Below are positions 5,373 to 63,520 of a DNA stretch of 64,000 nucleotides, piece after piece. The translations under genes were made by a program, and so were the position numbers. A model generated the notes under the pieces. The model did no database searches, had not been told where the DNA came from, and saw nothing but the letters and a program-made list of their open reading frames with translations. The DNA comes from a virus: positions 779 through 64,778 of the IMG/VR virus record IMGVR_UViG_3300015063_000001; one strand, 5' to 3'. The stretch's first letter is position 1. Each line of letters opens with the position of its first letter.

Positions 5373-6323
5373 ATGGACCTGGATTTCACCAAGCAATACC
5401 TGACCAGCGCACAGTTTGATCGGCTGGCGGCCGCGGTCGCAAAGCTCGAAGCGGGGATTGCCGCCGGCGCGGTCCGGAACGTGGACCTGACCGAAGCAAA
5501 GTTCACCATCAACCGGCGGATTGAGGAAATTGTTGAGACCCGGAAAGAATACGGGTCCCGCCACGTCGGCGGGGTTTCTGCCTTGAACCCAGCGATCAAG
5601 GAGGCAAAAAACAACTTCGGCCGCCATGCACTGCTTACCTCGTTGCTGCCTTTCCGGGACCTCTTAGAAGCGGCAAAGCCGCTAGTGGTCAAGCGCGGCC
5701 AGGGGCCGAAGGTGCCGACGAAGCGCGAGCTCGAGCGCTCGGCCCACACAATGACCTGCCAGTGCTGCGAACGCCAGATCTACGCGAACACCGGAACCAT
5801 CGCGCACCACGGCTACGAGCGGCCCGGCCACGGCTGGCAGACCTCGAGTTGCTTCGGCGCCAAGCGGTTGCCCTTCGAGGTGGACCGCGCCGCCCTGGGT
5901 GAAATGATTGTCTTCCTGCGCCACAGGCTGAAAGACCAGCGGGCCCACCGCAAGGCGATCGCGGACGAAATGCAGCCGATTGTCTTCGGGTACGCGGTCC
6001 AGTTCATCGGGCCGGTGCGGTACTACAACTTTGCGGCCCCAAGCTGGAGCCGGGAAAAGTGGCCGACGGTTCAACTCTGGTTCGATGTCACGCGGGAATC
6101 ATTCGACGAATTTAAGGCCGGTGTCGGGAGCGGATCGACCTACGGCGACGACTACGAGGATTACAAGGCCAAGCACGTCGCCCACCTTGATCGCCAGATC
6201 GCGGACCTGGTCAAGCACATCGCCTACGAGCAGGGTCGCTTCGACGGGTGGAAGCAGACGCACGAACGCTGCGGCGACGAGTGGATAAATCTGGCGCCAG
6301 CTATTGCAAACGGTGCCAAATAG
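5373..6323 (+). CDS. hypothetical phage protein with Cys/His motif
   Basis: 316 aa with strong SD; TCQCCE...IAHHGYERPGHGWQTSSCFG. Confidence 0.85.
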   Translation: MDLDFTKQYLTSAQFDRLAAAVAKLEAGIAAGAVRNVDLTEAKFTINRRIEEIVETRKEYGSRHVGGVSALNPAIKEAKNNFGRHALLTSLLPFRDLLEAAKPLVVKRGQGPKVPTKRELERSAHTMTCQCCERQIYANTGTIAHHGYERPGHGWQTSSCFGAKRLPFEVDRAALGEMIVFLRHRLKDQRAHRKAIADEMQPIVFGYAVQFIGPVRYYNFAAPSWSREKWPTVQLWFDVTRESFDEFKAGVGSGSTYGDDYEDYKAKHVAHLDRQIADLVKHIAYEQGRFDGWKQTHERCGDEWINLAPAIANGAK

Positions 6324-43053: not shown

Positions 43054-43716
43054 ATGGCTAAGAAAGAGCCTAAGCATGAAGTCGTTTCACGTAAAGAGGC
43101 AAAGCAAACTGGATCAAAATACTATTTTACTGGAAACCCATGCCCGCACGGGCATTTTGATTTGCGGTATGCTTCAAACTGTCGGTGCCTAGAATGCGCA
43201 AAAATAGCTAGCAAAATCTACTACGGAGTGGATAGGCCAAAGAACAAAGAAAAGATAAATGCAAAAAAGAGACGGCAGAATAGGACCACGCGAAAGGATT
43301 CGATAAGACGATGGAATAAATACTACAGCGAAAAAAACAAAGACAAAATACGTAATCGCAGCAAGCTGCGGTATGACAACAATAAAGAGAAACTCGGCAA
43401 AGAACGACGACTAGCATATGCTAAAAATCCAGAGAGATTTAATGTCCACGCAAGAAATCGAAAATCGCGCGTTCGCCATAGCGGAGGCGTCCATACAGAA
43501 ATTGACATTGCTGAAATACTTAAGGCCCAGAATGGGCGATGCGCTTATTGTCGCAAGAAAGTTAACCGCAGTTATCATGTCGATCATATCGTCGCTCTAT
43601 CGCGTGGTGGGACAAACGCCCGTGCCAATCTTCAAATTACGTGCCCTTCATGTAATAGACATAAACACGCCACCGACCCAATCGACTATGCTCGCAAACT
43701 AGGAATGCTGTTGTAA
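43054..43716 (+). CDS. HNH homing endonuclease
   Basis: YFTGNPCPHGH; QNGRCAYC...HVDHIVALSRGGTN..ANLQITCPSCN. Confidence 0.92.
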   Translation: MAKKEPKHEVVSRKEAKQTGSKYYFTGNPCPHGHFDLRYASNCRCLECAKIASKIYYGVDRPKNKEKINAKKRRQNRTTRKDSIRRWNKYYSEKNKDKIRNRSKLRYDNNKEKLGKERRLAYAKNPERFNVHARNRKSRVRHSGGVHTEIDIAEILKAQNGRCAYCRKKVNRSYHVDHIVALSRGGTNARANLQITCPSCNRHKHATDPIDYARKLGMLL

Positions 43717-44059: not shown

Positions 44060-44620
44060 ATGGCCGAAACCGTCCGCATCGCAACAAAGGCAGACGAGCC
44101 GGAGATCATCCGGCTCCTGCATCTTATGCACGCGGAAGGCGGAATGTTGCCGCTCGATCTCGGTCGCGCCCGTGAAATGTTTGCTCAAGCGTTTGATCGC
44201 AAGGGCGGCATCATGGGCGTAATCGGCGGGCCTGGAAACATCAAGGCGATGATCTATCTGTTTATGTCGAAGTATTGGTACACCAACGCCGACCACTTGG
44301 AAGAGGTTTTCAACTTTGTCAGCCCTGAACATCGCAAGGCAGGCTACGGCAAAGACCTCATAGTGTTCGCAAAAGAATGCGCAGATAAAATATGCGTTCC
44401 TTTAGTGATCGGCGTTCTAACAAATCAGCGGATGGAAGAAAAGGTTAGGCTCTATCGGCGTGTTCTTGGGACGCCGTGCGGGGCCTTTTTCGTTTACGGC
44501 GCGAATTTTGCCAATCTTGAATTGTCGAATAACAAGTTCTGGAAAGACATTCTCGAAAGACAGCCAAAGCCTAAGAGTGCGAACGGTAGCGCGTCAGCAA
44601 CCCATAGGGCGGACGCATGA
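44060..44620 (+). CDS. GNAT-fold acetyltransferase-like protein (podovirus ejection module)
   Basis: FVSPEHRKAGYGKDLI acetyl-CoA-binding-like motif. Confidence 0.75.
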   Translation: MAETVRIATKADEPEIIRLLHLMHAEGGMLPLDLGRAREMFAQAFDRKGGIMGVIGGPGNIKAMIYLFMSKYWYTNADHLEEVFNFVSPEHRKAGYGKDLIVFAKECADKICVPLVIGVLTNQRMEEKVRLYRRVLGTPCGAFFVYGANFANLELSNNKFWKDILERQPKPKSANGSASATHRADA

Positions 44621-48415: not shown

Positions 48416-51400
48416 ATGGCATCCCTTGATGACAGTGGCGATTGGGAAGACGTGTCTTCCCCTACGCCGCCTTCTGGTCTCAGCGCTGCGGCGCCATCGC
48501 CCCAACCTGCCGCCGCGCCGGCACAGGCCAAGGCGCCGGCCGCACAGGTGGCCGGCGGCGACGAATGGGAGGATGTCCCGCAGTGGCGGGGGTATCTGCC
48601 TGTCGCCGCGTCCGCCGTGGCCCAAAGTGCCGTTTCCTCGACTGGGTCTCTGCTCGCCGGCCTACCGGAACTGAGCGGGGACTATAATACCAAATTGCTG
48701 GCGAACCTCGATCGCATCGACCGCGGCGAAAAAGTGCCGATGGCTGATGACCCGATCGGCTATCAGGACATGGATCCTGAAACCCGCAAGCACACCAGGG
48801 CTGACGTCGAGGCGGCAAAGGCGGCTTACAAGCCGCAGGAAACGATGCTCTACAAAGCCGGCCACGCGATTAAAGAGTTCGGGGAAAAGCAGTTCCCGAT
48901 GTCGCTGGACGAACAGAAGTCGATCACGGCACAGGCTGCCGGCGTAGTCGGCGGCATGGCACCTTACCTCGCCGCCGGCGCTGTGCTCGGCCCAGAAGCC
49001 GCCGTAGGTCTCGGTATGGCCGGCATGGGCCTTTCCAGTGCCCATGAACAGGCGGAAGCCGCTCGAGCGAAAAACGCCTCGCCGGAAGCGGTGGCCGAAG
49101 CCGCGCGCATGGGCTTCTACAGTGGTGCCGCCGCGGGCGCGGTGCCGCTGCATGCCGTGATGACGCCGGTCGAACGGCTGGCGCCTGGCATCGCGGATTG
49201 GGCGCGGGCGCGGCTTCAACATGCGGCGCAGACCGGCGTTGCCTTTGCCACGCTTGGCGAAGCGCAGACCTGGCTCGGTCAACAGATCGCACAGAATTTT
49301 TATGATCCGGAGGCCGGCTACTCGCTCGATATTCAGCGCGTGCTCGGCGGCCTGCTCGGTGGTGCCTTCCTGGGTGGTATGGGTCGTACACCGTATCGCG
49401 GTGCCGAACAGCCGGCCGCGGAGAAGCCGAATCAGCACTCCGATGCCATTCAGGATATTCTCGGTGGTGAACCGCCTGGACCGCCAGCACCTCCTGGTGC
49501 TCCCGCTGTGGAGCCTGGAGAGCGTCGGCCGTACCCGGCCGAAGATGACGTTTCAATTCTCGGTGGCGATCGGCCAACCGGCGTTCCAAATGTCGACGAC
49601 TACGTTGACCAGTCGATGCGTAACCTTCGCGCGACGTCGCGCACGGTTGCCGGAACGCTGGATACCTCGTCGACCCCAGGCAAGGAAGAGAAGCTTGTTG
49701 ATGGCCTGACGCCCAAGGCTGCCGCGACACAGGCCGCCTCAAATTACGAAGGCATCGTTCGCCGGCTGTACGATTACAAAGACGATATCCCGACCACCGG
49801 CCCGGAAATGGGGACGCTGGTTAATGACGTCGCCGTTGCTGTAAACAATGGCATCGTCAAGCCGGGCCAGTTGGAGCGCACGACCAACACAAAATTCCCG
49901 ATGCAGACCAGGGCGGAGGATCTTCCGATTGCCTATGGTCAATTCTCTCAGGAATTGGCCGAGCGCCTTTCAAACCCTGCTGCGGATCCGGTCGAGACCG
50001 CGGCATGGATTGAATGGCGCGCAAACATGCTGGACCATTTCTGGACGGATGGCGTCGGCAAAACGTCGAAGGCGCTGGCGGCGATTCCTTTGATGCGGAG
50101 CGGCTTGCCGCTTCCGATCTATCCGCCGATGAAAGACTTTGTTGCGTTCGCCAAGGAACAGCCGCGCGTTGATCCGCTTGAAGGTGGCGCGGCATATCTC
50201 GGGCCGGCGTGGGAAAAATTCAATGCGTTCTACCACGACATGGTTTACCCGCAGAAAAGCCTGCAGGCCGCGCTTGATCGTGGGGCGACCGCCGACGAGC
50301 TAAGTCAGCATCCCATGGTGCTCAATGCCGTGGCGGAAAACAGCAGTCGTGTTCCAACCGGAACACCGGAGGATTTCCAGAACCCGGAATGGCGCAGCCA
50401 GCGCGTTTACAACATTAGTGGTCAGCCCGTCAGGGGTTGGGATGCCGCTGTTTCTGCCCTGACGAATCAGGCCAGCGCATATTCCGGTGGTCAGGTCGAG
50501 CATGGGCGCCATGCCGTCATTGTGCTCGGGCCCCCGGCTGCAGGCAAGTCGTCCATTTCGGAACCTGTTGCGCGGAAATATCGGGCCGCGATCGTTGACC
50601 CCGACGACGCGAAAAAGATCATTCCTGAATATCACAACGGCCTCGGCACCAGTGCTGTGCATGAGGAAAGCTCTGAACTCGCGATCGACGTCCTTAAGAA
50701 CATTGCGCGCGACGGTGGCAACATCGTCTTGCCAAAAGTAGGAGCGAGTGCCGATGGCATAAAGAAACTGGTTAACCGCTTGAAACAGTTGGGGTATACG
50801 GTCGATATCGCCCATGTGGCGGCTACACCAGAGATTTCGGCCCGGCGGAACATCGCTAGATTTCTGAATACCGGACGGCTTGTTAAGCCAGAATATATCA
50901 CTGAGGTAGGTGACAAGCCGCGCAAAACGGCCTATATGTTAAGGGGAGATGCAAATGACTTCATTGACGCCGACACATCCAAAGGCCACTACGAACTCGT
51001 CGAAGGAAACGGGCCGCTCGCCGACATTTTCCGAGATGGAAGAAATTTCGGACAAGGCGCAGATTCGGGCACTGGACGAGCTCTTGGCCGAGCGGAATCA
51101 GAAAAAGGACTGACCGGGGAGCAGGTCCCCGGCATTCCTGAACATCGCGTGACCGCTGCCGACGGCACGGCTATCGATGTCGCGCCGATCGTTGTCGAGG
51201 CATCGAGTCTCAGGACCTCTCAGGATCCCGGCTACGATACCAGCCTGCAGCCGCGGCAGCGCGATCGAGCCGCCAGCCAGGCACAGGTCCGCGACATCGC
51301 CACCAATCTCGACCCAGAACGTCTTGGCTATTCGGCCGAGGCTGATCGCGGGGCGCCGATTGTCGGACCTGACGGCATGGTGGAAAGCGGCAACGGCCGT

Positions 51401-54400
51401 GTGCTCGCGCTCCGAAGCGTTTACGAGCAAGGCGGACCGCAGGCACAGGCCTATCGGGATTGGCTGACGCGCCAGGGCGTCGACGTCTCCGGCTATCAGA
51501 ACCCGGTTTTGGTCCGGAAGCGCGTCACGCCGATGTCGCCACAGGAGCGGCGGTCGTTCACGGTCGCCGCGAACCAGGCCTCAACGCTCAGTATGTCGGC
51601 GCCGGAACGGGCGATGGCCGATGCGCGGCTGATGGATGCGCGGTCGATCGGCTTAATACGCAACGCAGAAGATATCGGCGCCCCTGCAAATCGTGACTTT
51701 GTTCGGCGTTTCGTTTCGCTGTTGCCGCAGGCTGAACAGGGGGCGATGGCTGATGCGCGCGGCGCCTTGTCGGCGGAAGGTCTGGCGCGGGTGCGTAATG
51801 CTGTGCTCGCGAAGGCCTACGGCGATGCTAGCGTTTTGGCGCGCATTGCGGAGTCGACGCACGATGAAGTCCGGTCGATTTCCAACGCCTTAACTGCCGC
51901 GGCGCCTGAGTGGGCGCGGATGCGCTCCGAAGTCGAGGCCGGCCGCGTCCGGTCTGATATGGACGCCACCCCTGATCTGCTCGAGGCAGTAAAGCGCACC
52001 GCAGATATTCGCAGCCGTGGCGAAAAGCTTGAAAACTATTTGGCGCAGCAAGACGCCTTCGACAAGATGCCGGCGCAGGTCGAGGCATTCATGCGAATGT
52101 TCTACGACCCGAAGGGCAATCGGGCAGCGGCGGCGATGCGGATTGCCCGCGCGCTGCGGCTCTATGCTCAAGAGGCTGCAAAAGTTAATGCCGATGAAGG
52201 GCTTGGTTTAGGCTTGGTCCCGGTGAAGCCGCGCGATATAACGCGGCTCGCCCTAGAACGGGAGTGGGAAGATTATGAACCAGATGCGGGAGTTTCCGAC
52301 CGCGGCGGCCTTGGTGACCGCACGGGCGGCGAAGAAGCTGGCCGGGCAGTACGGGGACCTTGGCTTGGCGAGGGCCGCAAAGGATCTCGAGAAGAGGGCT
52401 ATGGAGGCGATCAAGAATCGGCAGTCCGTGCTCAGCGACCAGAGCGCCCATTCAGCCTCAAAAACCTAACGACCGTTCCTGGTGTTGAGCAAGTCGATCT
52501 TGCCGGCGGGAAAAAGGGCGATCAATACGTCTTCCCAGGCACCGAAAAGATTTCCGCGGCCGAGCTTATGCGCCGGCGCGCGGCGGAGCCGATGCGGCCG
52601 AAGGTCGAGCAGAACACTACCGCTAGTGGCCTGTTCGGCGATGGGGCACAACAGCTAAGCCTGCTCGATGCCGCGAGGAAGGCTGCCGCAGAGCCCGTTG
52701 ACAAAGGTCCCATTGTACCCCAAATAGAGGGAACGGAGGCTGCAAATGCAAGTCGCGGAGAACCCGAAAGCGGCGGCATACGCACAGGAACACAAGAGGT
52801 TCCTGGAGGAAAACCGGCCGGACGTGCTCGCCGGGCTACGCCGATCGGGCGACCTGAACAGCTATCTCTCTTCGGTGGGGGAGCAGGCGAGCGATCTGTT
52901 TTTGACGCTAATGATGCAGTACAAAAACAGCCCGGAAATACGGAAGCTCCCGCACCTGGCGCTAGTACAAGCGTTACAAAGCCGCCGGAGGGAAGCCGAC
53001 GAGTTGGTGAGGCACGACATAATCCACCAGCCGTTGAAGGACTGAACGAAGCGCAGACCAAGATTGCGCAGCGCTCCCGCTCGAATTACCGAATTACTGA
53101 TGCCGACAAGATTGGCGAAGGTGGCCCGCGCCAGAAGATTCGCGGCAACCTCGAGGCAATCCGTATCCTCAAGACCATTGAGGATGAAAACCGCGATGCC
53201 ACGCCTGGCGAAAAGGCAGCCCTTGTGCAGTACGTCGGCTGGGGCGCCTTCGCGCAAGATATGTTCGCGCCGCACAAGACGGAATTGAAAGCGGAACGCG
53301 ATACGCTGCGATCGCTGGTCACCGATGAAGAGTTCAACGCGGCTCGAGGGTCTACACTAAACGCGCATTTCACGTCGCCTGACGTCGTCCGCGGCATGTG
53401 GGATGCCATCAATCATCTCGGCTATGACGGCGGGATGGCGATCGAGCCGGCGGCCGGCGTCGGCCATTTCATCGGCATGATCCCGGATAAGGTGGCGCCG
53501 AAGACGGCTTGGACGGCGGTTGAGCTCGACCCGCTTACCGGCCGTATCGCAAAGGCGCTCTACGGAAACGCCGAAGTCAACGTTCACGGCTTTGAGGACT
53601 TGAAGCGGCCATCGAACTATTACGATCTCGCGATCTCGAACGTTCCGTTCGGCAATTACAATATTTCGGAAAAGCCGTATGGCTCGTTTCCGATCCATGA
53701 TTTCTTTTTCGTCAAATCGCTCGACAAGGTTCGGCCCGGTGGCGTCGTCGCATTTGTGACGTCGCGCTACAGCATGGACCGCGTCGACGCCAACACGCGC
53801 CGGCTACTCGGCAAGACGGCCGATCTGGTCGGGGCCATCCGGTTACCTGGCGGCAACAAGGGCGCCTTTGCCGGCAATGCCGGGACGCAAGTCACCACCG
53901 ACGTCATGTTTCTTCGCAAGAAGATTCCGGGCGAGGCGCCGTTCCCCGGCGCCAACTGGTTTGACCTGAAAGAAATCCAAACCCCGGACGGCCCGACGAA
54001 AATCAACGAATATTTTGCCGATCATCCTGAAATGATGCTTGGTGAAATGCGGTTGCAGAGCACCATGTACCGGGACAATGAACCGGTGCTTATTGGTGAC
54101 GCCGAAGGCCTGCAGGACAGGATTGCCGCCGCGGCGCAAAACATGCCGAAGGGCGCCTTTGTCGCTCGCGACACCCCGCCGCCGCCGCCTATCCACGGCA
54201 ACGATATCGCGGCCGGCATCAAGGATGGCGCCTTCTTCTTGCAGGACGGCAAGCTGCACCAGCGCCGCGAGGGGCAGGGCTTTGCTCATCCGCTCAACGC
54301 GGAGGACCACGACCGCGTTACGCGGCTCGTCGGCATGCGCGACGTCGTCAACGATCTGTTGGCGACACAGCTTGCCGGCGGTGAGAACTCGGCAGCGCAA

Positions 54401-57400
54401 GCCGAACATGGCCGCGCCAAGCTGCGGGATGCTTATGATGCCTTTGTCGCCAAACACGGGCCGATCAATAAGGAAGAGCGCACCGTAACCAGCCGGCTTA
54501 ACAAGCTTGGCGAACCGGTGACAATCACTCGGTATCCGAACATCGCTAAGTTCATGGCGGATCCTGACGCTTGGAAAGTTGCGGCGATCGAGAACTACGA
54601 CACCGAGACCGGAAAGGCGAAGCGGGCCGATATCCAGACCAAGGATGTCATCGACGCGCCGATGGAACGCCAGATCAACGGGCCGTCCGATGCTCTGGCG
54701 GCTTCGTTGGACTTCACCGGCGGCGTCGATCTCGACCACATCGCACAGTCTCTCAATTTACAGACGCAGGAAGACGTCGTTCGCCATCTTGGCGATTTGG
54801 TCTACCAGAACCCGGACGGCCGGAAATGGGAGACCGCCGATAGTTACCTGTCCGGCGACGTGGTCAAGAAGCTTGATGATGCCCGCGCCATCGCCGCCGA
54901 AGACACGTCGTATATGCGCAACGTGTCAGCGCTCGAAAAGGTCCAGCCGGAGCCGTTGACCGGCTCAGACATCACGGCGCAGTTCGGGGCGCCATGGGTT
55001 CCAGGCGACGTCTACGAAAGCTTCCTCAAGGAAATCGGCGGTCAGGGCGTCAAGGTCAAGCTGGTCCCGTTGACCGGGGAATGGCGGTCAAGCGCCACGA
55101 TGTATTCCCGCGATGCCAGAGCAAAATATGGAACGGATCGTGTTGAGACAGCAAAGATAGTCGATGCCGCCCTCAACAATAGGCAGATCACGGTTTGGGA
55201 TGAGCACAGCGATGGAAGCAAGTCAGTCAACGAAAAGTCTACCACGGAAGCCAGGGTTAAGACCGAACTGCTGAAAGAGACGTTCACCGGCGACCAGGAA
55301 CACGGCATCGACGGCTGGGTGTTCGCAGATCCGGAGCGCGGCCAACGGTTGGAGGCGATCTACAATCGCACATACAACAACCTTGTGCAGCGCAAGTTCG
55401 ACGGCACGCACCTGACGCTGCCTGGGCTCAATCCTGATTTCGCGACACGCCAGCACCGCAAGGATGCAGTTTGGCGGATCGTCCAGAACGGCAACACGTT
55501 GCTTGCACACGACGTCGGGACTGGAAAAACCGCGACAATGATTGCGGCGGCGATGGAGCAAAAAAGACTTGGCTTAATTAATAAGCCGATGATGGTTGTT
55601 CCAAATCATATGTTGGAACAGTTCTCGCGCGAGTTTATCCAGGCGTATCCAGACGCTAAGATTTTGGTCGCGCAAAAAGACGAGATGACCAGGGAGAACC
55701 GCAAGGCGTTTCTGGCGCGCGTGGCGTCCAACGATTGGGACAGCGTCATCATTACGCATGATGCCTTCGGTCGCATTAACATGGGGCAGGAGTTCCGCAG
55801 GGCCTTCATCCGCGACCAACTCGACGAATTGGATCGGGCCATTAAGGCGGAAGCCGCTGAAAGCGATAAGAAGTCGCCGACGGTAAAGAGCTTGGAAAAG
55901 GCAAAAAAGAAGCTGCAGGGGCGGCTTGAAAATTTGATGAATGAAGAGCGCAAGGATGCTGGGACCAATTTTGAAGAATCCGGCGTCGATAATCTCTTCA
56001 TCGATGAAGCGCATTGCTTCCCATACAATACGATGGTCCAGACAGATCGCGGTCCAATCAAAATTGGTGAGATCGTTGAGAGGCAACTATCGGTTTCTGT
56101 CGCCAGCATAGATCACCGGACCGGTCGCCTTATATGGAATCCGATCCACAATTATTGGCGGCACAATCGCGGCAATAAGCAGTTTGTGCTTGTAAAAACC
56201 GATAAATCTGACATACTTTGCACAGTCAATCATCGAGTATTTGTGGATGGGCGAGGGTATGTCAGGGCAGATGAAATCAAGCCGGGAGAGGCTTTGCGCG
56301 CTTTGCCAGAGGCCGTTTGTGCCAGCGTCGCGCGGCAGACTTGGGAATACCCAGAAGCATTGCTCGCGCCAGTGTGCGAAAACGGCAGCCAAGAAACTAG
56401 TAGAAAAGAATTGCGAACTGTGCGGCGAGCCGTTTCAGTTTCGCAGTTCTGGAAAGACGAACAACGACAAGCGACGGTTTTGCGGCAGTCCATGTGCGGC
56501 GTCATGGCGGATGGCGCAGCCTGGGCGGATGGAGAAGTCCGCGCCGATGTGGGCCGCTTCGCGGAAGAAATGGTTGGAGCCAGAATACAAGGCCATGATG
56601 GCGTCGGCATCATCAAAAAGAATGCTTGCCGACAACCCGATGTCAAACGCGGATATCCGGCAGAAAGTCAGCGTGTCGCTGAGCGGGCGGACTTTTCTAT
56701 CTCGCGGCGGCAACGGCCAGCCGACGAAGCCGCAGTTGCTACTGCATGGCTTGACCGGTCTTCCCATGGAATATGCAATACTGACGAAGCCAGTGCACGG
56801 TCGATTTCAGAGTCTGCCGCAATGCTACAAGGTGGATTTGGCGGACCCGGTGCGCAAGTTGGCTATAGAGGTGGACGGCAACAGCCATCGTTCTCGGAAA
56901 TGGAAGTTTCTGGACCGACGCAAGACAGAAATACTGAATGCGCTCGGGTGGTCAGTGTTGAGATTCTCGAACGAGGAAGTGATCGCGAACCCAGAACTGG
57001 TGGTTCAGAAGATAGCTTCGTTTATGATCTCGGCGTCGCCGGCGAGCACAATTATTTCGCCAATGGAGTCCTAGTCCACAACTCGTTCAAGAACCTAGCT
57101 TTTATAACTCGTATGCAGCGCGTCAAGGGCTTGGCGCAGGGTGATAGCCAGCGCGCCGAAGACCTGTTCCTCAAGATTCAATACTTGGAACAGAAGCGGC
57201 CGGGGCGAGCGGCGGTGTTTGCCACCGGGACGCCGGTCTCTAACACGATGGCCGAGCTTTGGACGATGCAGCGGTATTTGAACCTGCGTGCGTTGAAAGA
57301 GCGCGGACTGGATACGTTCGATTCCTGGGCTTCGACCTTCGGCCGCGTCGTCAACAATATGGAATTGTCGGCTGACGGTCGCACCTTCAAGGAGGTGTCG

Positions 57401-60400
57401 TCGTTCTCGAAGTTTGTCAACGTGCCGGAACTGGTGTCTCTGTATTCAGAGATCGCAGATACAAAAACGGCGGACATGCTGAAACTGCCGACGCCGGATG
57501 TCAAAACCCGCAGCGGGGCGCCCGGCATCGAGATCGTCCAGGCGGAGCCTTCTTCCCAGGAAGAAGCGCACATCCAGAAATTGGTCGAACTCGCGGAATC
57601 GCTCAAAGGCAAGCGCCCTGAAAAGGGCCAGCCGAACATGCTGAGCGTGGTGACGGAAGGCCGCAAGGTCGCCACCGATGGTCGGCTGATTTCGCCTGAT
57701 TTTGATTTCAACCCGCAGGGCAAGATCGCCCTGGGCGTCAACAATATCCATCGCATATGGGAAGAGGGCAACGCTGACCCGTCGGCGCCGAACAAGGTGC
57801 AGATGGTGTTCCTCGACATGGGCGTACCGAAGAGCAAGGCCGCGGCAAAGAAGAAGCCGGCTGACGTCGATCTCGAGGAAGGTGCCGACCCGGCACAGGA
57901 AGCGGCGCCGCGCATCGACCTGTACGCCGACATCAAGAAGCGCCTTGTCGACGCCGGCATCCCGGCGAAAGAGATCGCAGCAATTCATGACGCGACGGAC
58001 GACGACAAGAAGGCAAAACTGTTCCAGAAGGTCCGCAACGGTGAAGTCCGGGTTATCTTGGGATCATCCGGAAAGATGGGCGTCGGCACAAACGTCCAAG
58101 ACAAACTTATCGCGATGCACCACTTTGACGCACCGTGGAAGCCAGCGGATGTCACGCAGCGCGACGGCCGTATCGTGCGGCAAGGCAACAAGAATAAGGA
58201 CGTGCAGATCTACCGCTATGTCACGAAGCGCTCTTTCGACGCCTTCATGTGGCAGAAGCTTGACACCAAATCGAAGTTTATCGGGCAGGTTTTGTCGGGG
58301 GCGAAGGGCTCCCGCCACGCCGAAGACATCGACAACCCGCTGCCGGAAGCTGCGGAAATGAAGGCGGCCGCGTCTGGTGACCCGCGGATTATAGAGCACG
58401 CCGAACTCGATCGCCAGGTCCGCGCCTTGTCGGCGCAGCGTAGATCGTTTGACGCGACGAAATCGCGGGCGCAGTGGGAAACCGGAACGGCAAAAACCCG
58501 TATTCAGGGATACGAGGACGCATTGCCGAACGCCAAGGCCGATGCTGCCAGCGTGCAGGATTTGGCCGGCGACAAGTTTAGCGCTGAGCTCGGCGGCTCG
58601 GTGGTGACTGATCGCAAGGTGGCCGGGCAGGCAATCCTAGATCGGTTATTGGCTGTTGATGCCCGCACCTTCTACACGCCGAAGATTGTCACGCTCGGCA
58701 AGCTGTCCGGCTTCGATATGAACGTCGAACTGCGTGGCGGCTGGGATGGCTCGTCGGCCATTCTGCGGGCGCAGCCGTCACTCAAAGGCAAGAGCGGCTA
58801 CGGCACGCCGAACGATACGGTCATTAATGCGCAGACCGATCCCGGCGGCTTGATCCGCCGGTTTGAAAATATCCTCGGTAACATCCGGCAGAACCCGGAC
58901 CGGTTGGAACGCGAGTTGGCCGGCGAAAAGGACAGCGTTGCGAAACTCGAAAAGACCTTGGGCGAGACATGGCCGAAGGAAAATGATTACCGCGCCGCGC
59001 TGGATAAGCTTCATGCGCTGAGCGAGTCGTTGAAGGCGCCGAAGCATCCCGACGTCTTTACGGAAGAGGTGAAGGAGCGCCGCGGCGGCTGGGATCAGGC
59101 CGAAGGCCGCGACATGGGCCCGAAGCTTGGCGAGACCGCCGTTCGTATCGGGGCAAAAACGGAAGCCCATATCAAGCCGACCGAGCGCTACACGGCGGCT
59201 GAGAAAAAGATTGCCAACGCTGTTGCCGAGATCGGTCAGCGCATGGCGCCGCAGGCCGACGTCAGGGGCGCAGCCGCGCTCCGGCAGAACGGCAATCAGA
59301 TATGGGGTGCCTTCGTCAACAGCGAGGCCTTCCCGCACCTTGTCGCGTGGTCTCTCGAAAAGGGCAGTCCGGCCCAGATTGCCGGCACGGTGCGCCATGA
59401 AATTGTCCATCATCTCCGTGAGGCCGGTTTGATCCGTCCGAACGAATGGGCGGCATTACGCGATGCGGCGGTCAAGGATGACTGGCTCGGCAAGCATAAC
59501 ATCGAGGACCGCTATCCGGACCTTTCAATGGACCGCAAGGTGGAAGAAGCCGTTGCCGAACAGTTCTCAAAATGGCGCACTGAACGGTCGATCGAAAAGC
59601 CAGGCCTGATCCGGGACGCCTTCCAGCGGATCGAATTGCTGTTCCGCCGTGTGGCTGCGGCGGCGCGCAGCTTCATGGGCAAGGATGCCACCGCCAATGA
59701 CGTCTTCACTAGGATTGAAACCGGCGAAGTCGGCGCTCGCCATTCCGACCAGATCGAGGCGCAGAAGCGGTATTTGGCACAAGACAACCGCGAGGCCGCG
59801 CAGACGCCGGGCGAAGAGAACCGGAAGCGGCGCGAGTTTGCGCGCGGTTTGCCCGGCGCGGAGCCGACCATTCGTGATAGGATAGTGCAGGCTGCCGATG
59901 CTCTGCGGGCTAAGGCGGCCGAGTTCTCTGAGAAGATTGGCGTCGATCAAATCGTCCGTGACATGCAGATGCGCGTGGCGCCGATGGCGGCGCGTGACGC
60001 CACCGTGCAGTCCCGCGCGATCGCCAAGGAGTTCATCAACGCGCGCCGGCAATCCAGGCAATCCTGGAATGCCGCCGACAAATACATCATGGACAATTTC
60101 CCGCCGGAGCGCCGCAAGGCTATGTGGGATGCCGCTGACGAGCAAAGCGTTGCGATGCAGCGCGGCCGGTCGACGGTGGGGATCGGCCTCGACCGTCTGC
60201 CACCGGATGAACGGCGTGTTGTCGAAATGCTGCAGGCCCGTGGTGAGCGCAATCTGAAAGACGCCAACGATCTCGGTATGATCGAAAGCGAAGGCCTTCC
60301 GAGCTACGCGCCGCGCATGGTGGTCCGCATGGCGGAAGGCAAATACGAGCATGGGGCTGGCCCCGGTGCCGAAGTGGTTCGTGACGTCCGAACCTTGGCG

Positions 60401-63400
60401 CTCGCCAACGCACGGCTCGAAGACGCCATTGCGGCGCGGCGCCTTATCAACTCTATCGAGGAAGTCGGCAAAAGGAGTGGTAACCCGACCGTCAACGATG
60501 GCGGGGCTCCGACGCGCAAGATTGGTGCGGAAGGCCAAATCGCGAATGTTCTCGACCAGATCGGTCGCGGCGTCTCGACGTCGACGCCGCAGTTGAAGCA
60601 CCGCAAGTATCTGACGACGGAAGAAACCGAAGCGGCGGCCAATAAGGTTCCGGTGGCCGATAAGAATGCCCCGGATTGGTTCACGCTCAATCACCCGGCG
60701 TTTACGAAGCTTATGCCGCGCATGACCGACTCTGACCCGAAAACCTATCGGGATGCAGTCAAGCGCGTCAGCGGCATGACCGTCGAAAACAAGCAGGTCC
60801 CGGCCCGCGATGAAGACGGCAATATCATCTATGACCGCAAGCCGATTTACGTCCGGGCCGATTTCGAGGGTCCGCTTCGCGCCGTTCTTTCCAAGGACAC
60901 CGACCGCACCTACCGCGCCTTGATGGCCCTCAAGGGCAAGGTGATGTCGGTTATCATGATGTCGCCGCTTATCCACAATCAAGTGGAATGGGGCCGCGCG
61001 CTGCCGGTGGCACCTGGCAAGGTGGTCACGTTCCAGACCTATCTCGAGGGCAACAAGGTTGCCAACGATCCGAAACTTATGAACCGCGCCATTGCTGGTG
61101 GCGTCGTCCCGATCGGCGGACACGGCTATATGCAGGATATCGTGTCGATCGCGGAAGCGCCGACGGTGCGGCCTGGCCGGTCGTTGACGGCCAAGGGCTT
61201 GGGCTACGGCGCCGAAGGCCTCGGGTATCTGACGCGGCTTTATAACCCGCGCTCAGGCGCTAATGAAGTTCGCAATGCCGTCGATTGGTTCGGAAACGTT
61301 TGGCACAACCGGATGCTTTGGGACCGCATTCGTGACCTGCAAATGGGTCTGTGGTCGCACGTCAATGAAACTATGGTCGGTAAAGGATATGATCCTTATA
61401 GCGCCAACGTGGCGGCGGCACACTTTGCAAACCGATATGCCGGCGCACTGCCGATTGAAGCGATGTCTGGCATCGCCCGCGGCATTGCCAACGTCTTGCT
61501 GTTCTCGCGGAGCTTCACGCTCGGCAACCTAGGCGCCTACAAGGACGCCATCCTCGGGCTGCCGCGTGACGCACAGGCGATGATCCAGCAAAACGTCGGA
61601 TACGCCGAATTACAGAAGGTTCAGAGTTACGTGAAACGAAAGTCGCTGGCGATGCTGGCGATCGACGCCGGGCTTTATTACGCGACATTGTCGGCCCTGC
61701 AGAGCGCGTTCAACGTGGCCGGCGTCGGCCATACCGTCAGCACGCTCGGCGGCATGATTGCCGGCGGCGCCCTTGGCGGCAAAGGCGGCACGTTCGGCCG
61801 GTTGGCTGCGGCGGCGGGTATGGGCGCGGCCGGGTTCGGGCTTGCCAGCGTTCTCGGCGCGTCAAAGGGTACCCGCGATCTTGAGGACGAGCTCGGCCGG
61901 TACTGGACCAGGTTCTCCGATCTGCTTGGTCGTGTTGGCGAGCATCCGTTTGAAACGATTGGCAACCCGTTCAAGATGCTGGAGTCGCTCGGCTCGACTG
62001 CGGAAAATGAGCCCGGCAAGAAGAGCCGCCTGCTGATCGGCTACCAGCCTGACGGCACGGCGATCTACGCGCGCCTCGCGGTCGGCAAGGTCACAGAAGA
62101 GTTGATGGGCTACATGACCGAGCCGAACGAGATGCTTCATCGTAAGCTGAGCACCTTCGCCAGACCGTTGTCGCAACTTTATAATAACGACGCCGGCTTT
62201 GGGCATCCGGTGTATGACAAAAAAGCTGATACGCCGTACGCTGTCACGAAGAACATTATCAAAATTGCCGCCCTGATTGTCGGTGACCAGATACCGGTCG
62301 ACACCATCAAGGGTGCCATGGACTGGTACGGCGGCGGACCGGGCTCCGAAGTGTCTGGCATGAAGGCGATCGCGCCGTTCATCGGCACGACGATCTCAAA
62401 GGGCTTCCCTGGTGGGCCCGAGCTCGGCGTATTGCAGGACGCAAAGGATCGGCAGAAATACCGAGTGCAGGAAGCGTTGCCCGGCATCCGCGAGCAAATC
62501 AAAAAGGGCGATACCGAAGGCGCAGTAGCCAAGATGGAAGAACTGCATATCCCGCGCGGGCTGCAGGGCTACTACATTCGCACGACGCAAGACCCGGCAT
62601 CGCGGCTCTCCAAGCGCGAGATGCACGATTTCATGCAATACGCCTCGCCGGACGAACAGCGCGAGTATGAGAACACGCAGCGGAACAGGCCGACTACGGA
62701 CGGCTCGGCACCGAAGCGCGCCGATGGCGGAAAGGTGGAGGCTGACTACGACACCGCGCTAACGCCGGATGAAGAGGCAAGCTTCCAACAGTGGAAGGCG
62801 GACAATGCACCGCACGATTCTGGCGCGGACTATGACCTCCGTGGTGCGTTCAAGGCCGGCCTGTCGCCCGCCGCCGATGGTCATTGGGATGACACCTTCA
62901 AAAAGCCGAACCATCCGACTTTCAGCATCTATTCCAAATATGCGAAGGATCGGCCGGAGTTGGCCGGGACATGGAATGGCGATCAATACATCCCGCCCGT
63001 TCCTGCCCGCGCGCACGGCGGCCGCGTCGAGGCGGCAAACATCAATCACAATCCGACTGAGGCGCAGAAGCACGCCGGCAACTACGCAAAAGATCACGTA
63101 AGAATCCACGGCCACGACATCACCATCGAGAACGCCAAAGGCAAACGCCGGCACGGCGTTGGTCAAGACGGCAAGCCATGGTCCGCCGTGCTCGGGGCAC
63201 ACTACGGGTATTTTAAAAAATCTGAGGCCAGAGATGGCGATCATGTCGACTGCTACCTCGGCCCGCACATCAAGTCCCCGCACGTCTTTGCCATCGATCA
63301 AGTCGACCACAGGACCGGCAAATACGACGAAGCAAAAATCTGTCTTGGTTTCGCAAACGAAAAGCAGGCGTTGCGCGCCTATGAGGCCGGGTTCTCGGAT

Positions 63401-63520
63401 GGCAAAGGCCGCGATCGCATCGGCAAGGTGCACGCTATGACCGTGCCGCAGTTCCGCGCGTGGCTGAAACACGGCGATACAAAGCGGCCGTTCCGGCATG
63501 TGGAGACGGCCGAAACCTAA
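48416..63520 (+). CDS. giant (5034 aa) virion-associated polyvalent protein: Fic-like, zeta-toxin-like kinase, ddrB-ParB, N6-adenine methyltransferase plus SNF2 helicase (DarB-like, with intein), zincin metallopeptidase, InPase-like
   Basis: HFWTDGVGKTSK; GPPAAGKS; VESGNGR; EPAAGVG and NVPFG; HDVGTGKT and DEAH; RHEIVHH...EEAVA; PTEAQKHAGNY...DGDHVDCY. Confidence 0.92.
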   Translation: MASLDDSGDWEDVSSPTPPSGLSAAAPSPQPAAAPAQAKAPAAQVAGGDEWEDVPQWRGYLPVAASAVAQSAVSSTGSLLAGLPELSGDYNTKLLANLDRIDRGEKVPMADDPIGYQDMDPETRKHTRADVEAAKAAYKPQETMLYKAGHAIKEFGEKQFPMSLDEQKSITAQAAGVVGGMAPYLAAGAVLGPEAAVGLGMAGMGLSSAHEQAEAARAKNASPEAVAEAARMGFYSGAAAGAVPLHAVMTPVERLAPGIADWARARLQHAAQTGVAFATLGEAQTWLGQQIAQNFYDPEAGYSLDIQRVLGGLLGGAFLGGMGRTPYRGAEQPAAEKPNQHSDAIQDILGGEPPGPPAPPGAPAVEPGERRPYPAEDDVSILGGDRPTGVPNVDDYVDQSMRNLRATSRTVAGTLDTSSTPGKEEKLVDGLTPKAAATQAASNYEGIVRRLYDYKDDIPTTGPEMGTLVNDVAVAVNNGIVKPGQLERTTNTKFPMQTRAEDLPIAYGQFSQELAERLSNPAADPVETAAWIEWRANMLDHFWTDGVGKTSKALAAIPLMRSGLPLPIYPPMKDFVAFAKEQPRVDPLEGGAAYLGPAWEKFNAFYHDMVYPQKSLQAALDRGATADELSQHPMVLNAVAENSSRVPTGTPEDFQNPEWRSQRVYNISGQPVRGWDAAVSALTNQASAYSGGQVEHGRHAVIVLGPPAAGKSSISEPVARKYRAAIVDPDDAKKIIPEYHNGLGTSAVHEESSELAIDVLKNIARDGGNIVLPKVGASADGIKKLVNRLKQLGYTVDIAHVAATPEISARRNIARFLNTGRLVKPEYITEVGDKPRKTAYMLRGDANDFIDADTSKGHYELVEGNGPLADIFRDGRNFGQGADSGTGRALGRAESEKGLTGEQVPGIPEHRVTAADGTAIDVAPIVVEASSLRTSQDPGYDTSLQPRQRDRAASQAQVRDIATNLDPERLGYSAEADRGAPIVGPDGMVESGNGRVLALRSVYEQGGPQAQAYRDWLTRQGVDVSGYQNPVLVRKRVTPMSPQERRSFTVAANQASTLSMSAPERAMADARLMDARSIGLIRNAEDIGAPANRDFVRRFVSLLPQAEQGAMADARGALSAEGLARVRNAVLAKAYGDASVLARIAESTHDEVRSISNALTAAAPEWARMRSEVEAGRVRSDMDATPDLLEAVKRTADIRSRGEKLENYLAQQDAFDKMPAQVEAFMRMFYDPKGNRAAAAMRIARALRLYAQEAAKVNADEGLGLGLVPVKPRDITRLALEREWEDYEPDAGVSDRGGLGDRTGGEEAGRAVRGPWLGEGRKGSREEGYGGDQESAVRAQRPERPFSLKNLTTVPGVEQVDLAGGKKGDQYVFPGTEKISAAELMRRRAAEPMRPKVEQNTTASGLFGDGAQQLSLLDAARKAAAEPVDKGPIVPQIEGTEAANASRGEPESGGIRTGTQEVPGGKPAGRARRATPIGRPEQLSLFGGGAGERSVFDANDAVQKQPGNTEAPAPGASTSVTKPPEGSRRVGEARHNPPAVEGLNEAQTKIAQRSRSNYRITDADKIGEGGPRQKIRGNLEAIRILKTIEDENRDATPGEKAALVQYVGWGAFAQDMFAPHKTELKAERDTLRSLVTDEEFNAARGSTLNAHFTSPDVVRGMWDAINHLGYDGGMAIEPAAGVGHFIGMIPDKVAPKTAWTAVELDPLTGRIAKALYGNAEVNVHGFEDLKRPSNYYDLAISNVPFGNYNISEKPYGSFPIHDFFFVKSLDKVRPGGVVAFVTSRYSMDRVDANTRRLLGKTADLVGAIRLPGGNKGAFAGNAGTQVTTDVMFLRKKIPGEAPFPGANWFDLKEIQTPDGPTKINEYFADHPEMMLGEMRLQSTMYRDNEPVLIGDAEGLQDRIAAAAQNMPKGAFVARDTPPPPPIHGNDIAAGIKDGAFFLQDGKLHQRREGQGFAHPLNAEDHDRVTRLVGMRDVVNDLLATQLAGGENSAAQAEHGRAKLRDAYDAFVAKHGPINKEERTVTSRLNKLGEPVTITRYPNIAKFMADPDAWKVAAIENYDTETGKAKRADIQTKDVIDAPMERQINGPSDALAASLDFTGGVDLDHIAQSLNLQTQEDVVRHLGDLVYQNPDGRKWETADSYLSGDVVKKLDDARAIAAEDTSYMRNVSALEKVQPEPLTGSDITAQFGAPWVPGDVYESFLKEIGGQGVKVKLVPLTGEWRSSATMYSRDARAKYGTDRVETAKIVDAALNNRQITVWDEHSDGSKSVNEKSTTEARVKTELLKETFTGDQEHGIDGWVFADPERGQRLEAIYNRTYNNLVQRKFDGTHLTLPGLNPDFATRQHRKDAVWRIVQNGNTLLAHDVGTGKTATMIAAAMEQKRLGLINKPMMVVPNHMLEQFSREFIQAYPDAKILVAQKDEMTRENRKAFLARVASNDWDSVIITHDAFGRINMGQEFRRAFIRDQLDELDRAIKAEAAESDKKSPTVKSLEKAKKKLQGRLENLMNEERKDAGTNFEESGVDNLFIDEAHCFPYNTMVQTDRGPIKIGEIVERQLSVSVASIDHRTGRLIWNPIHNYWRHNRGNKQFVLVKTDKSDILCTVNHRVFVDGRGYVRADEIKPGEALRALPEAVCASVARQTWEYPEALLAPVCENGSQETSRKELRTVRRAVSVSQFWKDEQRQATVLRQSMCGVMADGAAWADGEVRADVGRFAEEMVGARIQGHDGVGIIKKNACRQPDVKRGYPAESQRVAERADFSISRRQRPADEAAVATAWLDRSSHGICNTDEASARSISESAAMLQGGFGGPGAQVGYRGGRQQPSFSEMEVSGPTQDRNTECARVVSVEILERGSDREPRTGGSEDSFVYDLGVAGEHNYFANGVLVHNSFKNLAFITRMQRVKGLAQGDSQRAEDLFLKIQYLEQKRPGRAAVFATGTPVSNTMAELWTMQRYLNLRALKERGLDTFDSWASTFGRVVNNMELSADGRTFKEVSSFSKFVNVPELVSLYSEIADTKTADMLKLPTPDVKTRSGAPGIEIVQAEPSSQEEAHIQKLVELAESLKGKRPEKGQPNMLSVVTEGRKVATDGRLISPDFDFNPQGKIALGVNNIHRIWEEGNADPSAPNKVQMVFLDMGVPKSKAAAKKKPADVDLEEGADPAQEAAPRIDLYADIKKRLVDAGIPAKEIAAIHDATDDDKKAKLFQKVRNGEVRVILGSSGKMGVGTNVQDKLIAMHHFDAPWKPADVTQRDGRIVRQGNKNKDVQIYRYVTKRSFDAFMWQKLDTKSKFIGQVLSGAKGSRHAEDIDNPLPEAAEMKAAASGDPRIIEHAELDRQVRALSAQRRSFDATKSRAQWETGTAKTRIQGYEDALPNAKADAASVQDLAGDKFSAELGGSVVTDRKVAGQAILDRLLAVDARTFYTPKIVTLGKLSGFDMNVELRGGWDGSSAILRAQPSLKGKSGYGTPNDTVINAQTDPGGLIRRFENILGNIRQNPDRLERELAGEKDSVAKLEKTLGETWPKENDYRAALDKLHALSESLKAPKHPDVFTEEVKERRGGWDQAEGRDMGPKLGETAVRIGAKTEAHIKPTERYTAAEKKIANAVAEIGQRMAPQADVRGAAALRQNGNQIWGAFVNSEAFPHLVAWSLEKGSPAQIAGTVRHEIVHHLREAGLIRPNEWAALRDAAVKDDWLGKHNIEDRYPDLSMDRKVEEAVAEQFSKWRTERSIEKPGLIRDAFQRIELLFRRVAAAARSFMGKDATANDVFTRIETGEVGARHSDQIEAQKRYLAQDNREAAQTPGEENRKRREFARGLPGAEPTIRDRIVQAADALRAKAAEFSEKIGVDQIVRDMQMRVAPMAARDATVQSRAIAKEFINARRQSRQSWNAADKYIMDNFPPERRKAMWDAADEQSVAMQRGRSTVGIGLDRLPPDERRVVEMLQARGERNLKDANDLGMIESEGLPSYAPRMVVRMAEGKYEHGAGPGAEVVRDVRTLALANARLEDAIAARRLINSIEEVGKRSGNPTVNDGGAPTRKIGAEGQIANVLDQIGRGVSTSTPQLKHRKYLTTEETEAAANKVPVADKNAPDWFTLNHPAFTKLMPRMTDSDPKTYRDAVKRVSGMTVENKQVPARDEDGNIIYDRKPIYVRADFEGPLRAVLSKDTDRTYRALMALKGKVMSVIMMSPLIHNQVEWGRALPVAPGKVVTFQTYLEGNKVANDPKLMNRAIAGGVVPIGGHGYMQDIVSIAEAPTVRPGRSLTAKGLGYGAEGLGYLTRLYNPRSGANEVRNAVDWFGNVWHNRMLWDRIRDLQMGLWSHVNETMVGKGYDPYSANVAAAHFANRYAGALPIEAMSGIARGIANVLLFSRSFTLGNLGAYKDAILGLPRDAQAMIQQNVGYAELQKVQSYVKRKSLAMLAIDAGLYYATLSALQSAFNVAGVGHTVSTLGGMIAGGALGGKGGTFGRLAAAAGMGAAGFGLASVLGASKGTRDLEDELGRYWTRFSDLLGRVGEHPFETIGNPFKMLESLGSTAENEPGKKSRLLIGYQPDGTAIYARLAVGKVTEELMGYMTEPNEMLHRKLSTFARPLSQLYNNDAGFGHPVYDKKADTPYAVTKNIIKIAALIVGDQIPVDTIKGAMDWYGGGPGSEVSGMKAIAPFIGTTISKGFPGGPELGVLQDAKDRQKYRVQEALPGIREQIKKGDTEGAVAKMEELHIPRGLQGYYIRTTQDPASRLSKREMHDFMQYASPDEQREYENTQRNRPTTDGSAPKRADGGKVEADYDTALTPDEEASFQQWKADNAPHDSGADYDLRGAFKAGLSPAADGHWDDTFKKPNHPTFSIYSKYAKDRPELAGTWNGDQYIPPVPARAHGGRVEAANINHNPTEAQKHAGNYAKDHVRIHGHDITIENAKGKRRHGVGQDGKPWSAVLGAHYGYFKKSEARDGDHVDCYLGPHIKSPHVFAIDQVDHRTGKYDEAKICLGFANEKQALRAYEAGFSDGKGRDRIGKVHAMTVPQFRAWLKHGDTKRPFRHVETAET
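50949..51113 (+). CDS. nested +1-frame ORF overlapping the end of the zeta domain (candidate antitoxin)
   Basis: SD AAGGGGAG before ATG 50949/50955; MQMTSLTPTHPKATTNSSKETGRSPTFSEMEEISDKAQIRALDELLAERNQKKD* (manual translation). Confidence 0.55.
   Translation: MQMTSLTPTHPKATTNSSKETGRSPTFSEMEEISDKAQIRALDELLAERNQKKD
52275..52469 (+). CDS. nested +1-frame ORF, small helical protein
   Basis: 53 of 64 codons end in G/C in this frame, versus about half in the host frame; GGAG upstream. Confidence 0.65.
   Translation: MNQMREFPTAAALVTARAAKKLAGQYGDLGLARAAKDLEKRAMEAIKNRQSVLSDQSAHSASKT
52746..53045 (+). CDS. nested +1-frame TnpV-like protein
   Basis: SD GGAGG with 6-nt spacer; Y...HKRFLEENRP...L..SGDL..YL..V.EQA...A.E.V..DII fits the TnpV pattern. 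Confidence 0.75.
   Translation: MQVAENPKAAAYAQEHKRFLEENRPDVLAGLRRSGDLNSYLSSVGEQASDLFLTLMMQYKNSPEIRKLPHLALVQALQSRRREADELVRHDIIHQPLKD
56015..57082 (+). mobile_element. class 1 intein (356 aa) inserted directly after the helicase DEAH motif
   Basis: Block A CFPYNTMV, block B CTVNH, block F VYDLGV...HNYFANG, block G VLVHN/S; removal restores IDEAH-SFKNL. Confidence 0.93.
56241..57074 (+). CDS. zinc-ribbon plus Vsr/DUF559-like endonuclease in the +1 frame, entirely inside the intein
   Basis: CALC, CSRQC, CELC, CGSPC; YKVDLAD...LAIEVDGNSH...DRRKTEILNALGWSVLRFSNEEV; alternative ATG starts at 56259 and 56271. Confidence 0.85.
   Translation: MWMGEGMSGQMKSSRERLCALCQRPFVPASRGRLGNTQKHCSRQCAKTAAKKLVEKNCELCGEPFQFRSSGKTNNDKRRFCGSPCAASWRMAQPGRMEKSAPMWAASRKKWLEPEYKAMMASASSKRMLADNPMSNADIRQKVSVSLSGRTFLSRGGNGQPTKPQLLLHGLTGLPMEYAILTKPVHGRFQSLPQCYKVDLADPVRKLAIEVDGNSHRSRKWKFLDRRKTEILNALGWSVLRFSNEEVIANPELVVQKIASFMISASPASTIISPMES

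Follow-up and report, generated by a model that had tools for sequence, protein, structure and literature searches.

A small gene nested out of frame in a giant DarB-like phage gene is probably a companion of TnpV

A 64,000-nucleotide (nt) stretch of viral DNA, positions 779 to 64,778 of IMG/VR record IMGVR_UViG_3300015063_000001 (hereafter the window), contains a giant DarB-like gene with a second, short open reading frame (ORF), here called B, lying wholly inside it. B is probably a genuine gene that occupies an inter-domain spacer of the giant gene, belongs to one cassette with two further nested ORFs (A and C, the latter encoding TnpV) and specifies a companion of TnpV. The evidence comes from frame-specific substitution patterns among related loci, from homologues of B encoded as separate genes and from the recurrent presence of TnpV beside, or fused to, B-family proteins. 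The coordinates of the features are collected in Table 1.

An initial annotation, made from the DNA letters, had described B as a nested gene spanning 52261-52469. The ORF is real and does lie in the +1 frame of the giant gene; the annotated 5' end, 52261, falls in the GGGAG of a Shine-Dalgarno (SD)-like purine run, and the ATG is at 52275. Upstream of this ATG the nested frame has a TAG at 52254. The ATG, SD-like site and stop of B are intact in six nested lineages, namely the window sequence (W) and the related loci L002, L004, L005, L021 and L022, and GGAG, GAGG or GGGAG stands 3-10 nt before the ATG in the nested copies examined. A recount agreed with the annotated 53 of 64 codons ending in G or C in the nested frame and with a G/C content at third codon positions (GC3) of about 50% in the host frame (31/64, 48%), and the translations quoted for both frames were exact. 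In 300-nt windows covering 52166-53065, host GC3 falls to 0.39-0.60 while host GC1, which equals nested GC3, rises to 0.73-0.80. At least 53 G/C-ending codons also occur in 63 of 4,971 64-codon windows in the +1 frame of the giant ORF, most of them in host sequence rich in Ala, Pro and Gly; the low-complexity part of the host near the N-terminus (48966-49356) matches the count for B without being a nested gene, and many chance ORFs of B's size exist. Composition alone is weak, merely suggestive evidence for B. What makes B more than a chance ORF is comparative, namely the existence of separately called homologues and a switch in the pattern of substitutions between W and L002.

A word-index search recovered five homologues of B, with 63-70% identity, which are separately called proteins of 58-95 amino acids (aa) from soil-type metagenomes. 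On their contigs (L002-L007) the small ORF is followed, in the same frame and 200-900 nt later, by an ORF of 92-99 aa that matches Pfam TnpV. A profile built from six B sequences and searched against 1.84 billion cluster representatives retrieved 63 representatives at E<=1e-3, of which 31 lay at E<=1e-10, so that the gene proposed in the initial annotation has close homologues as well as a wider family. A tblastn search of B against 50,697 phage records returned no match, and viral contigs searched with the single B or C protein yielded no related loci. The conserved core of B reads FPTA-x-ALV-x-AR ... GDLGLAR ... RQSVLS, and the protein is basic (isoelectric point 10.1). From a 33-row alignment, AlphaFold2 (AF2) predicts a two-helix hairpin (helices 9-26 and 29-47) with a mean predicted local distance difference test score (pLDDT) of 81.5, in keeping with the helical protein that had been anticipated. 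B founds an undescribed small-protein family, for which Pfam, PHROGs, NCBIfam and PADLOC gave no match, with a basic helical hairpin as its predicted structure.

The same data bear on the idea that B is a chance ORF, whose GC3 skew would be a by-product of a Gly/Glu/Arg-rich linker, full of GNN and CGN codons and hence of G and C at host position 1. The low-complexity host segment at 48966-49356, which reaches the same count of G/C-ending codons, is what can be said for it. It is refuted by the 63 family representatives, non-overlapped genes included, by the confident AF2 model and by the nested-type substitutions described below, and we give it almost no credence.

Selection on the two frames was compared by the ratio of nonsynonymous to synonymous divergence (dN/dS, Nei-Gojobori) among the six nested lineages (15 pairs). 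Over the full ORF of B, dN/dS was 0.28-0.80 (median 0.49) in the nested frame and 0.89-2.0 (median 1.25) in the host frame, values to be read as comparative only, dN/dS being biased in overlapping frames. The nested value was the lower of the two in 15/15 pairs. For the conserved core of B in four lineages, the corresponding ranges were 0.23-0.47 and 1.4-2.9, and among the nested copies dS reached 0.6-2.0 with dN lower. When W and L002 are aligned codon by codon along the entire giant ORF, most differences elsewhere lie at host third positions (20-35 per 50 codons), whereas these drop to 6-11 exactly over 52268-52507 and 52739-53038, where host first positions, the third positions of the nested frame, are the most variable. 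Across the entire alignment, divergence at host position 3 is below that at position 1 at B and C only, with a weaker dip at A. The share of W-L002 differences falling at host position 3, compared by Fisher's exact test with a host-only reference, is given for each segment in Table 1. The nested-frame dN/dS, the position-3 shift and the retained ATG and SD-like site therefore show that purifying amino-acid selection acts on the nested frame of B, within the nested state, which bears out the initial claim that the selected protein at this place is the nested one.

Table 1 Features of the window, with the share of W-L002 differences at host codon position 3
Feature	Positions	Strand	Description	Position-3 share	Fisher p vs reference
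Host gene	48416..63520	+	5,034-codon ORF; polyvalent (DarB-like)		
Nested ORF A	50949..51113	+	54 aa, +1 frame, at the Zeta-toxin/ParB junction; same shift as B and C, weaker	0.33	3e-5
SD-like purine run	52260..52271	+	GGGAG 52260-52264 and GGGAAG 52266-52271, upstream of the B ATG		
Nested gene B	52275..52469	+	64 aa, ATG...TAA, +1 frame of 48416-63520, directly after the ParB module	0.21	1.5e-8
Host-frame-only linker between B and C	52470..52745	+	Host-type substitutions; nested frame has stops here	0.54	0.027
Nested gene C (tnpV)	52746..53045	+	99 aa, in the same +1 frame as B; Pfam TnpV E=5e-12, above curated cut-off	0.24	5e-10
Host-only reference			2,129 codons	0.66	

These patterns also bear on whether B might be a fossil, that is, a captured cassette kept in sequence but no longer translated, with the giant protein as the sole product. 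Internal initiation at B would have to compete with the elongating ribosomes of a long translated gene, and there is no promoter-like site nearby, both of which would suit a fossil. A dead frame, however, would be expected to gain stops and host-type substitutions, and the opposite is observed: purifying selection operates among the nested copies themselves, whose dN stays below a dS of up to 0.6-2.0, and the start signals and stop persist in all six lineages. We consider a fossil improbable.

Phages use frameshifting to obtain two products from one gene, and a programmed +1 ribosomal frameshift might in this way join B to the upstream product that contains ParB, so that a truncated ParB-B protein would exist beside the full-length one. 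B-like segments in frame with host-type ones are indeed found in two proteins (P0016 and P0030) from error-prone long-read contigs. Both were dropped as evidence because the contigs concerned (L008 and L011) visibly fragment known genes, for example an integrase. In W and L002 the nested-frame stop 21 nt before the ATG leaves a window of 18 nt for a shift, and this window has no slippery or stop-stimulated site and a sequence that is not conserved between lineages; all copies of B, moreover, begin with an ATG after an SD-like site. Frameshifting at B is thus very unlikely, more so than a fossil.

The host frame is stop-free across A, B and C. B and C are in the same frame, and in W and L002-L007 no stop interrupts the one lying 1 nt behind it across either ORF. 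Further nested loci were found through an invariant 21-nt block: L016 (from an Acidobacteriia metagenome-assembled genome, MAG), L019 (from an Acetobacteraceae MAG, starting inside tnpV), and L021 and L022 (both from IMG/VR). Their host frames are open for 507 to 4,278 codons. When the codons of the nested proteins were resampled from the phage's own codon usage, the probability of an open host frame was 0.17-0.22 for B, 0.004-0.010 for C and 0.03-0.05 for A, which gives a joint chance of ~6e-5 for the three in one lineage. Permutation of synonymous codons could not discriminate (P 0.1-0.8 for host-frame openness), the codon set being already depleted of T-ending codons, and the resampling was relied on in its place. 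On either side of the nested ORFs the host frame encodes a real protein, as seen in the W-L002 substitution pattern and in the presence of a GNAT domain in L004. The outer frame is accordingly functional across the overlap and is neither a mere leftover nor dead; the DNA is dual-coding, with the nested frame selected for its sequence and the host frame for its continuity, the result being a Gly/Arg/Glu-rich spacer.

The length of host frame between B and tnpV varies in content. In L004 (6289-7176) it holds the inserted GNAT domain (Pfam Acetyltransf_1, E=6e-6), and in L022 (860-1780) an insert of ~270 aa that belongs to no family. As judged from these sequences, this part of the giant gene appears to be a hot spot for extra domains.

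The two sister ORFs have start signals or relatives of their own. For C, GGAGG at 52735-52739 precedes the ATG by a 6-nt spacer, the protein also matches phrog_24764 (E=5e-13), and its AF2 model is all-helical (pLDDT 91.9); a Foldseek search of this model against the PDB returned generic helical matches only and no solved relative. ORF A is conserved in L002 and L004, where an R-S-P-[TS]-F-S-E-M-[ED] motif (SPTFSEME in the window) is followed by a helix. With a profile made from the three nested A ORFs, matches (E 1e-15 to 2e-6) were obtained in 14 B-family proteins, directly before the B domain. ORF A and the B protein of L013 did not align in BLASTP; what connects A with the B family is the profile search together with one 40-nt blastn hit. 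Because the SPTFSEME segment and its helix are homologous to the segment before the B domain in these 14 free proteins, A belongs with B and TnpV in one cassette, and this speaks against its being an antitoxin for the zeta domain in particular.

B and TnpV are linked well beyond the window. They occur in one polypeptide in both orders (TnpV-B in P0019; B-TnpV in P0033, P0042 and P0034). In L013, on a bacterial contig of 710 kb, and in L014/L015 (bacterial, 216 kb), the ordinary gene for a protein containing B ends ~60-130 nt before an ordinary tnpV gene, the pairs being surrounded by integrase/HNH/defence islands, and in L009 and L012 a B-TnpV gene lies beside a divergent gene of the Xre-type helix-turn-helix class. 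Overall, B adjoins or is fused to TnpV in W, L002-L007, L009, L012-L016, L021 and L022, and L008 has tnpV upstream; the exception is L011, an error-prone contig. Some family members have a repeated unit (B-A-B), an added C-terminal beta-rich domain or N-terminal transmembrane helices. At the DNA level, B and C of W are 71-83% identical to free copies, whereas the host-only DNA between them finds no match. Given the free B-TnpV pairs and fusions, the A segments preceding B and the DNA identity to free copies, A, B and C appear to be pieces of a small mobile-element cassette that exists independently and that, in this phage clade, has become interleaved out of frame with the domains of a giant gene. 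In two of the free loci, a gene of the HD_4 type (small alarmone hydrolase-like, RelA/SpoT-type) follows tnpV, at L013:10404-10955 and, as a weak or truncated remnant, at L012:960-1235.

The initial annotation had proposed that B probably works with, or inhibits, the ddrB-ParB domain that comes before it, to which a chaperone role might be added. Position is in its favour, as in every nested copy with visible upstream sequence the ParB module, with its conserved C-terminal tail, comes before B, and small nested genes at domain junctions are plausible regulators of their neighbours. The nested copies have a homologous ParB tail in common, however, so that the position after ParB is not independent evidence and agrees with a single arrangement common to these copies. 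No Pfam match to ddrB-ParB was found among the neighbours of the B genes in L009, L012, L013, L014 and L015, all of which have an adjoining tnpV, and the fusions of B seen in the family are to TnpV, never to ParB. Examination of gene neighbourhoods, a check suggested along with the original proposal, thus supports a TnpV companion and leaves the ParB partner without support, since free B adjoins or is fused to TnpV with no ParB nearby. A role for B on the ParB module is unlikely in our judgement, although it stands a little higher than a fossil.

Taken together, these results lead us to favour B as a TnpV companion, and they suggest how such a gene could work. Where it occurs free, the cassette is encoded by ordinary non-overlapped genes, with TnpV either as the product of the gene after the A-B one or as part of the same protein. 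In the phage, ribosomes would start at B's own SD sequence and ATG inside the giant messenger RNA and yield B as a separate protein. Its ~45-residue basic helical hairpin would act with TnpV and not on the upstream ParB, most likely as a docking or adaptor subunit, since varied domains are attached to B and these are always near TnpV. The giant protein would tolerate the B segment as a linker, a Gly/Arg/Glu-rich spacer whose composition is dictated by the nested gene. The B and TnpV families are broader than the giant-gene clade, and for this reason the small genes are probably the older layer, with the spacer frame of the giant gene overprinted on them.

Several points weigh against B as a TnpV companion encoded by a gene of its own. 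All relatives are metagenomic, and to this is added the bias of dN/dS in overlapping frames. B itself matched nothing in Pfam, PHROGs, NCBIfam or PADLOC; against PDB sequences its profile found designed helical (repeat) proteins only, at E>=0.001, and Foldseek of its model against the PDB gave generic helical matches with a best E-value of 1.6. A scan for promoters and terminators produced nothing above shuffled expectation, and no promoter-like site just upstream of B. The partnership is one-sided, in that tnpV occurs with no detectable B nearby in L017, L018 and L020. In a poorly supported tree of tnpV, nested and free copies interleave. Finally, the giant gene is interrupted elsewhere in two relatives, by an in-frame stop in L005 (~388) and a frame change in L004 (~5640-5964), both inside the conserved ParB tail; these may be errors of assembly or true splits of the gene.

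The frame 1 nt behind tnpV is itself unusual. It is stop-free over practically the full gene in 13 of the 14 copies examined, free-standing ones included, the remaining copy (L012) having a single N-terminal stop. In the free-standing tnpV genes of L013 (9922-10377), L014 (9874-10515), L017, L018 and L020 it is stop-free over the whole gene (142-222 codons), and codon resampling for nested tnpV copies gave a chance of at most 1% for a stop-free frame behind. The stop-free second frame in free tnpV suggests either that these copies derive from nested ones or that the second frame matters everywhere. Within tnpV, a block (TATCTCTCTTCGGTGGGG, 52860-52883; also in L002, L004, L005, L009, L012 and L013) is identical down to synonymous sites. 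About 18 nt of it, encoding SYLSSVG in the nested frame and QLSLFGG in the frame 1 nt behind, are identical in all tnpV copies examined. QLSLFGG resembles a sliding-clamp-binding peptide. Selection of QLSLF as such a peptide was considered, and is weakened by the occurrence of the same nucleotides in L009 and L012, which have no giant host ORF running through tnpV; the clamp-motif-like peptide may instead be a by-product of constraint at the nucleotide level.

On the strength of the stop-free frame in 13/14 copies and the invariant ~18-nt block, it is conceivable, if rather doubtful, that the A-B/TnpV cassette is a mobile unit adapted to residence within other genes, and that giant polyvalent genes gain length by taking up cassettes of this kind and placing new domains between the pieces. 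If this were true, the host ORF would read through the cassette as a harmless or useful spacer, a protein-level counterpart of the tolerance of inteins and introns, without splicing.

Fully embedded +1-frame genes are classic in phages, and overprinting has been well reviewed (PMC8227390). The first comparison is with Rz/Rz1 of phage lambda, in which one lysis gene is wholly embedded in the +1 frame of another. Both products are needed there and form a single lysis complex, and the inner gene is considered the younger of the two. As there, B is a short phage gene wholly inside a longer one, in the +1 frame and with its own start signals. It differs in that the inner genes A, B and C belong to families that also occur free, and in that the outer frame is only a spacer over the nested genes, any link in function of the inner products to the outer one being hypothetical. 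The second comparison is with TnpV of Tn4451/Tn4453-type elements (PF14198), of which C is a member and to which B is consistently linked without being a TnpV itself. A role in excision has only been postulated for TnpV, from its likeness to lambda Xis (PMC3158075), and the fold search with the all-helical model offered no support for an Xis-like protein.

The third comparison is with the polyvalent proteins found in phages and conjugative elements (Iyer, Burroughs, Anand, de Souza and Aravind 2017, PMC5512222) and with P1 DarB-like antirestriction proteins; the host gene has the typical set of ddrB-ParB, Zeta toxin, methyltransferase (MTase)-SNF2 and InPase, as well as DarB-like relatives. 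The text of that paper has no TnpV, overlapping genes, frameshifts or linkers, and out-of-frame genes in inter-domain spacers are absent from the polyvalent architecture described there. A literature search on nested genes in DarB/antirestriction genes returned nothing relevant. What sets this locus apart is the combination of a polyvalent giant host gene, three nested ORFs that form one cassette with a free form, inner genes that are likely to be older and an outer frame that is a spacer only.

ORFs embedded in longer genes are dropped by standard annotation, and B, A and tnpV would accordingly be lost inside one hypothetical giant protein. The locus offers a statistically clean case of two frames with different tasks, one encoding small proteins selected for sequence and the other a spacer, merely kept open, in a virion-type protein of 5,034 residues, and one that reverses the usual expectation, in that the inner small genes appear to be the older layer. 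The new B family gains in TnpV its first functional handle, and the arrangement provides a concrete system for internal initiation within a very long translated gene. It is also a reason to re-inspect the low-complexity inter-domain linkers of polyvalent and DarB-like proteins for hidden genes.

The window derives from an 81.6-kb IMG/VR virus record rated 98% complete, which represents a tailed phage as indicated by a match to an SU10-type portal; the terminase match is weak and sub-threshold. The 5,034-aa product of the host gene contains the Pfam domains Zeta_toxin, ddrB-ParB, SNF2/ResIII with an intein, Helicase_C and InPase, and also carries an adenine-MTase-like motif. With many unrelated conflict-type domains in one polypeptide, it is a polyvalent protein of the phage type, as PMC5512222 uses the term. 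Giant-gene relatives in the nearest cultured phages, at 36-38% identity, are labelled 'DarB-like antirestriction', and blastn matches to plasmids are confined to the helicase/MTase part. Over the intein in the SNF2 helicase (55916-57100), host GC3 goes down to 0.43-0.54, and a +1-frame ORF of 277 aa (56241-57074) lies inside it. An intein is removed from the host protein by splicing, whereas the overlaps with B, C and A remain part of the host protein, where they serve as spacer. An HNH endonuclease gene (43054-43716; Pfam E=4e-13) and a weak GNAT-like gene (44060-44620) lie shortly before the virion-type genes of 1,240 aa and 5,034 aa.

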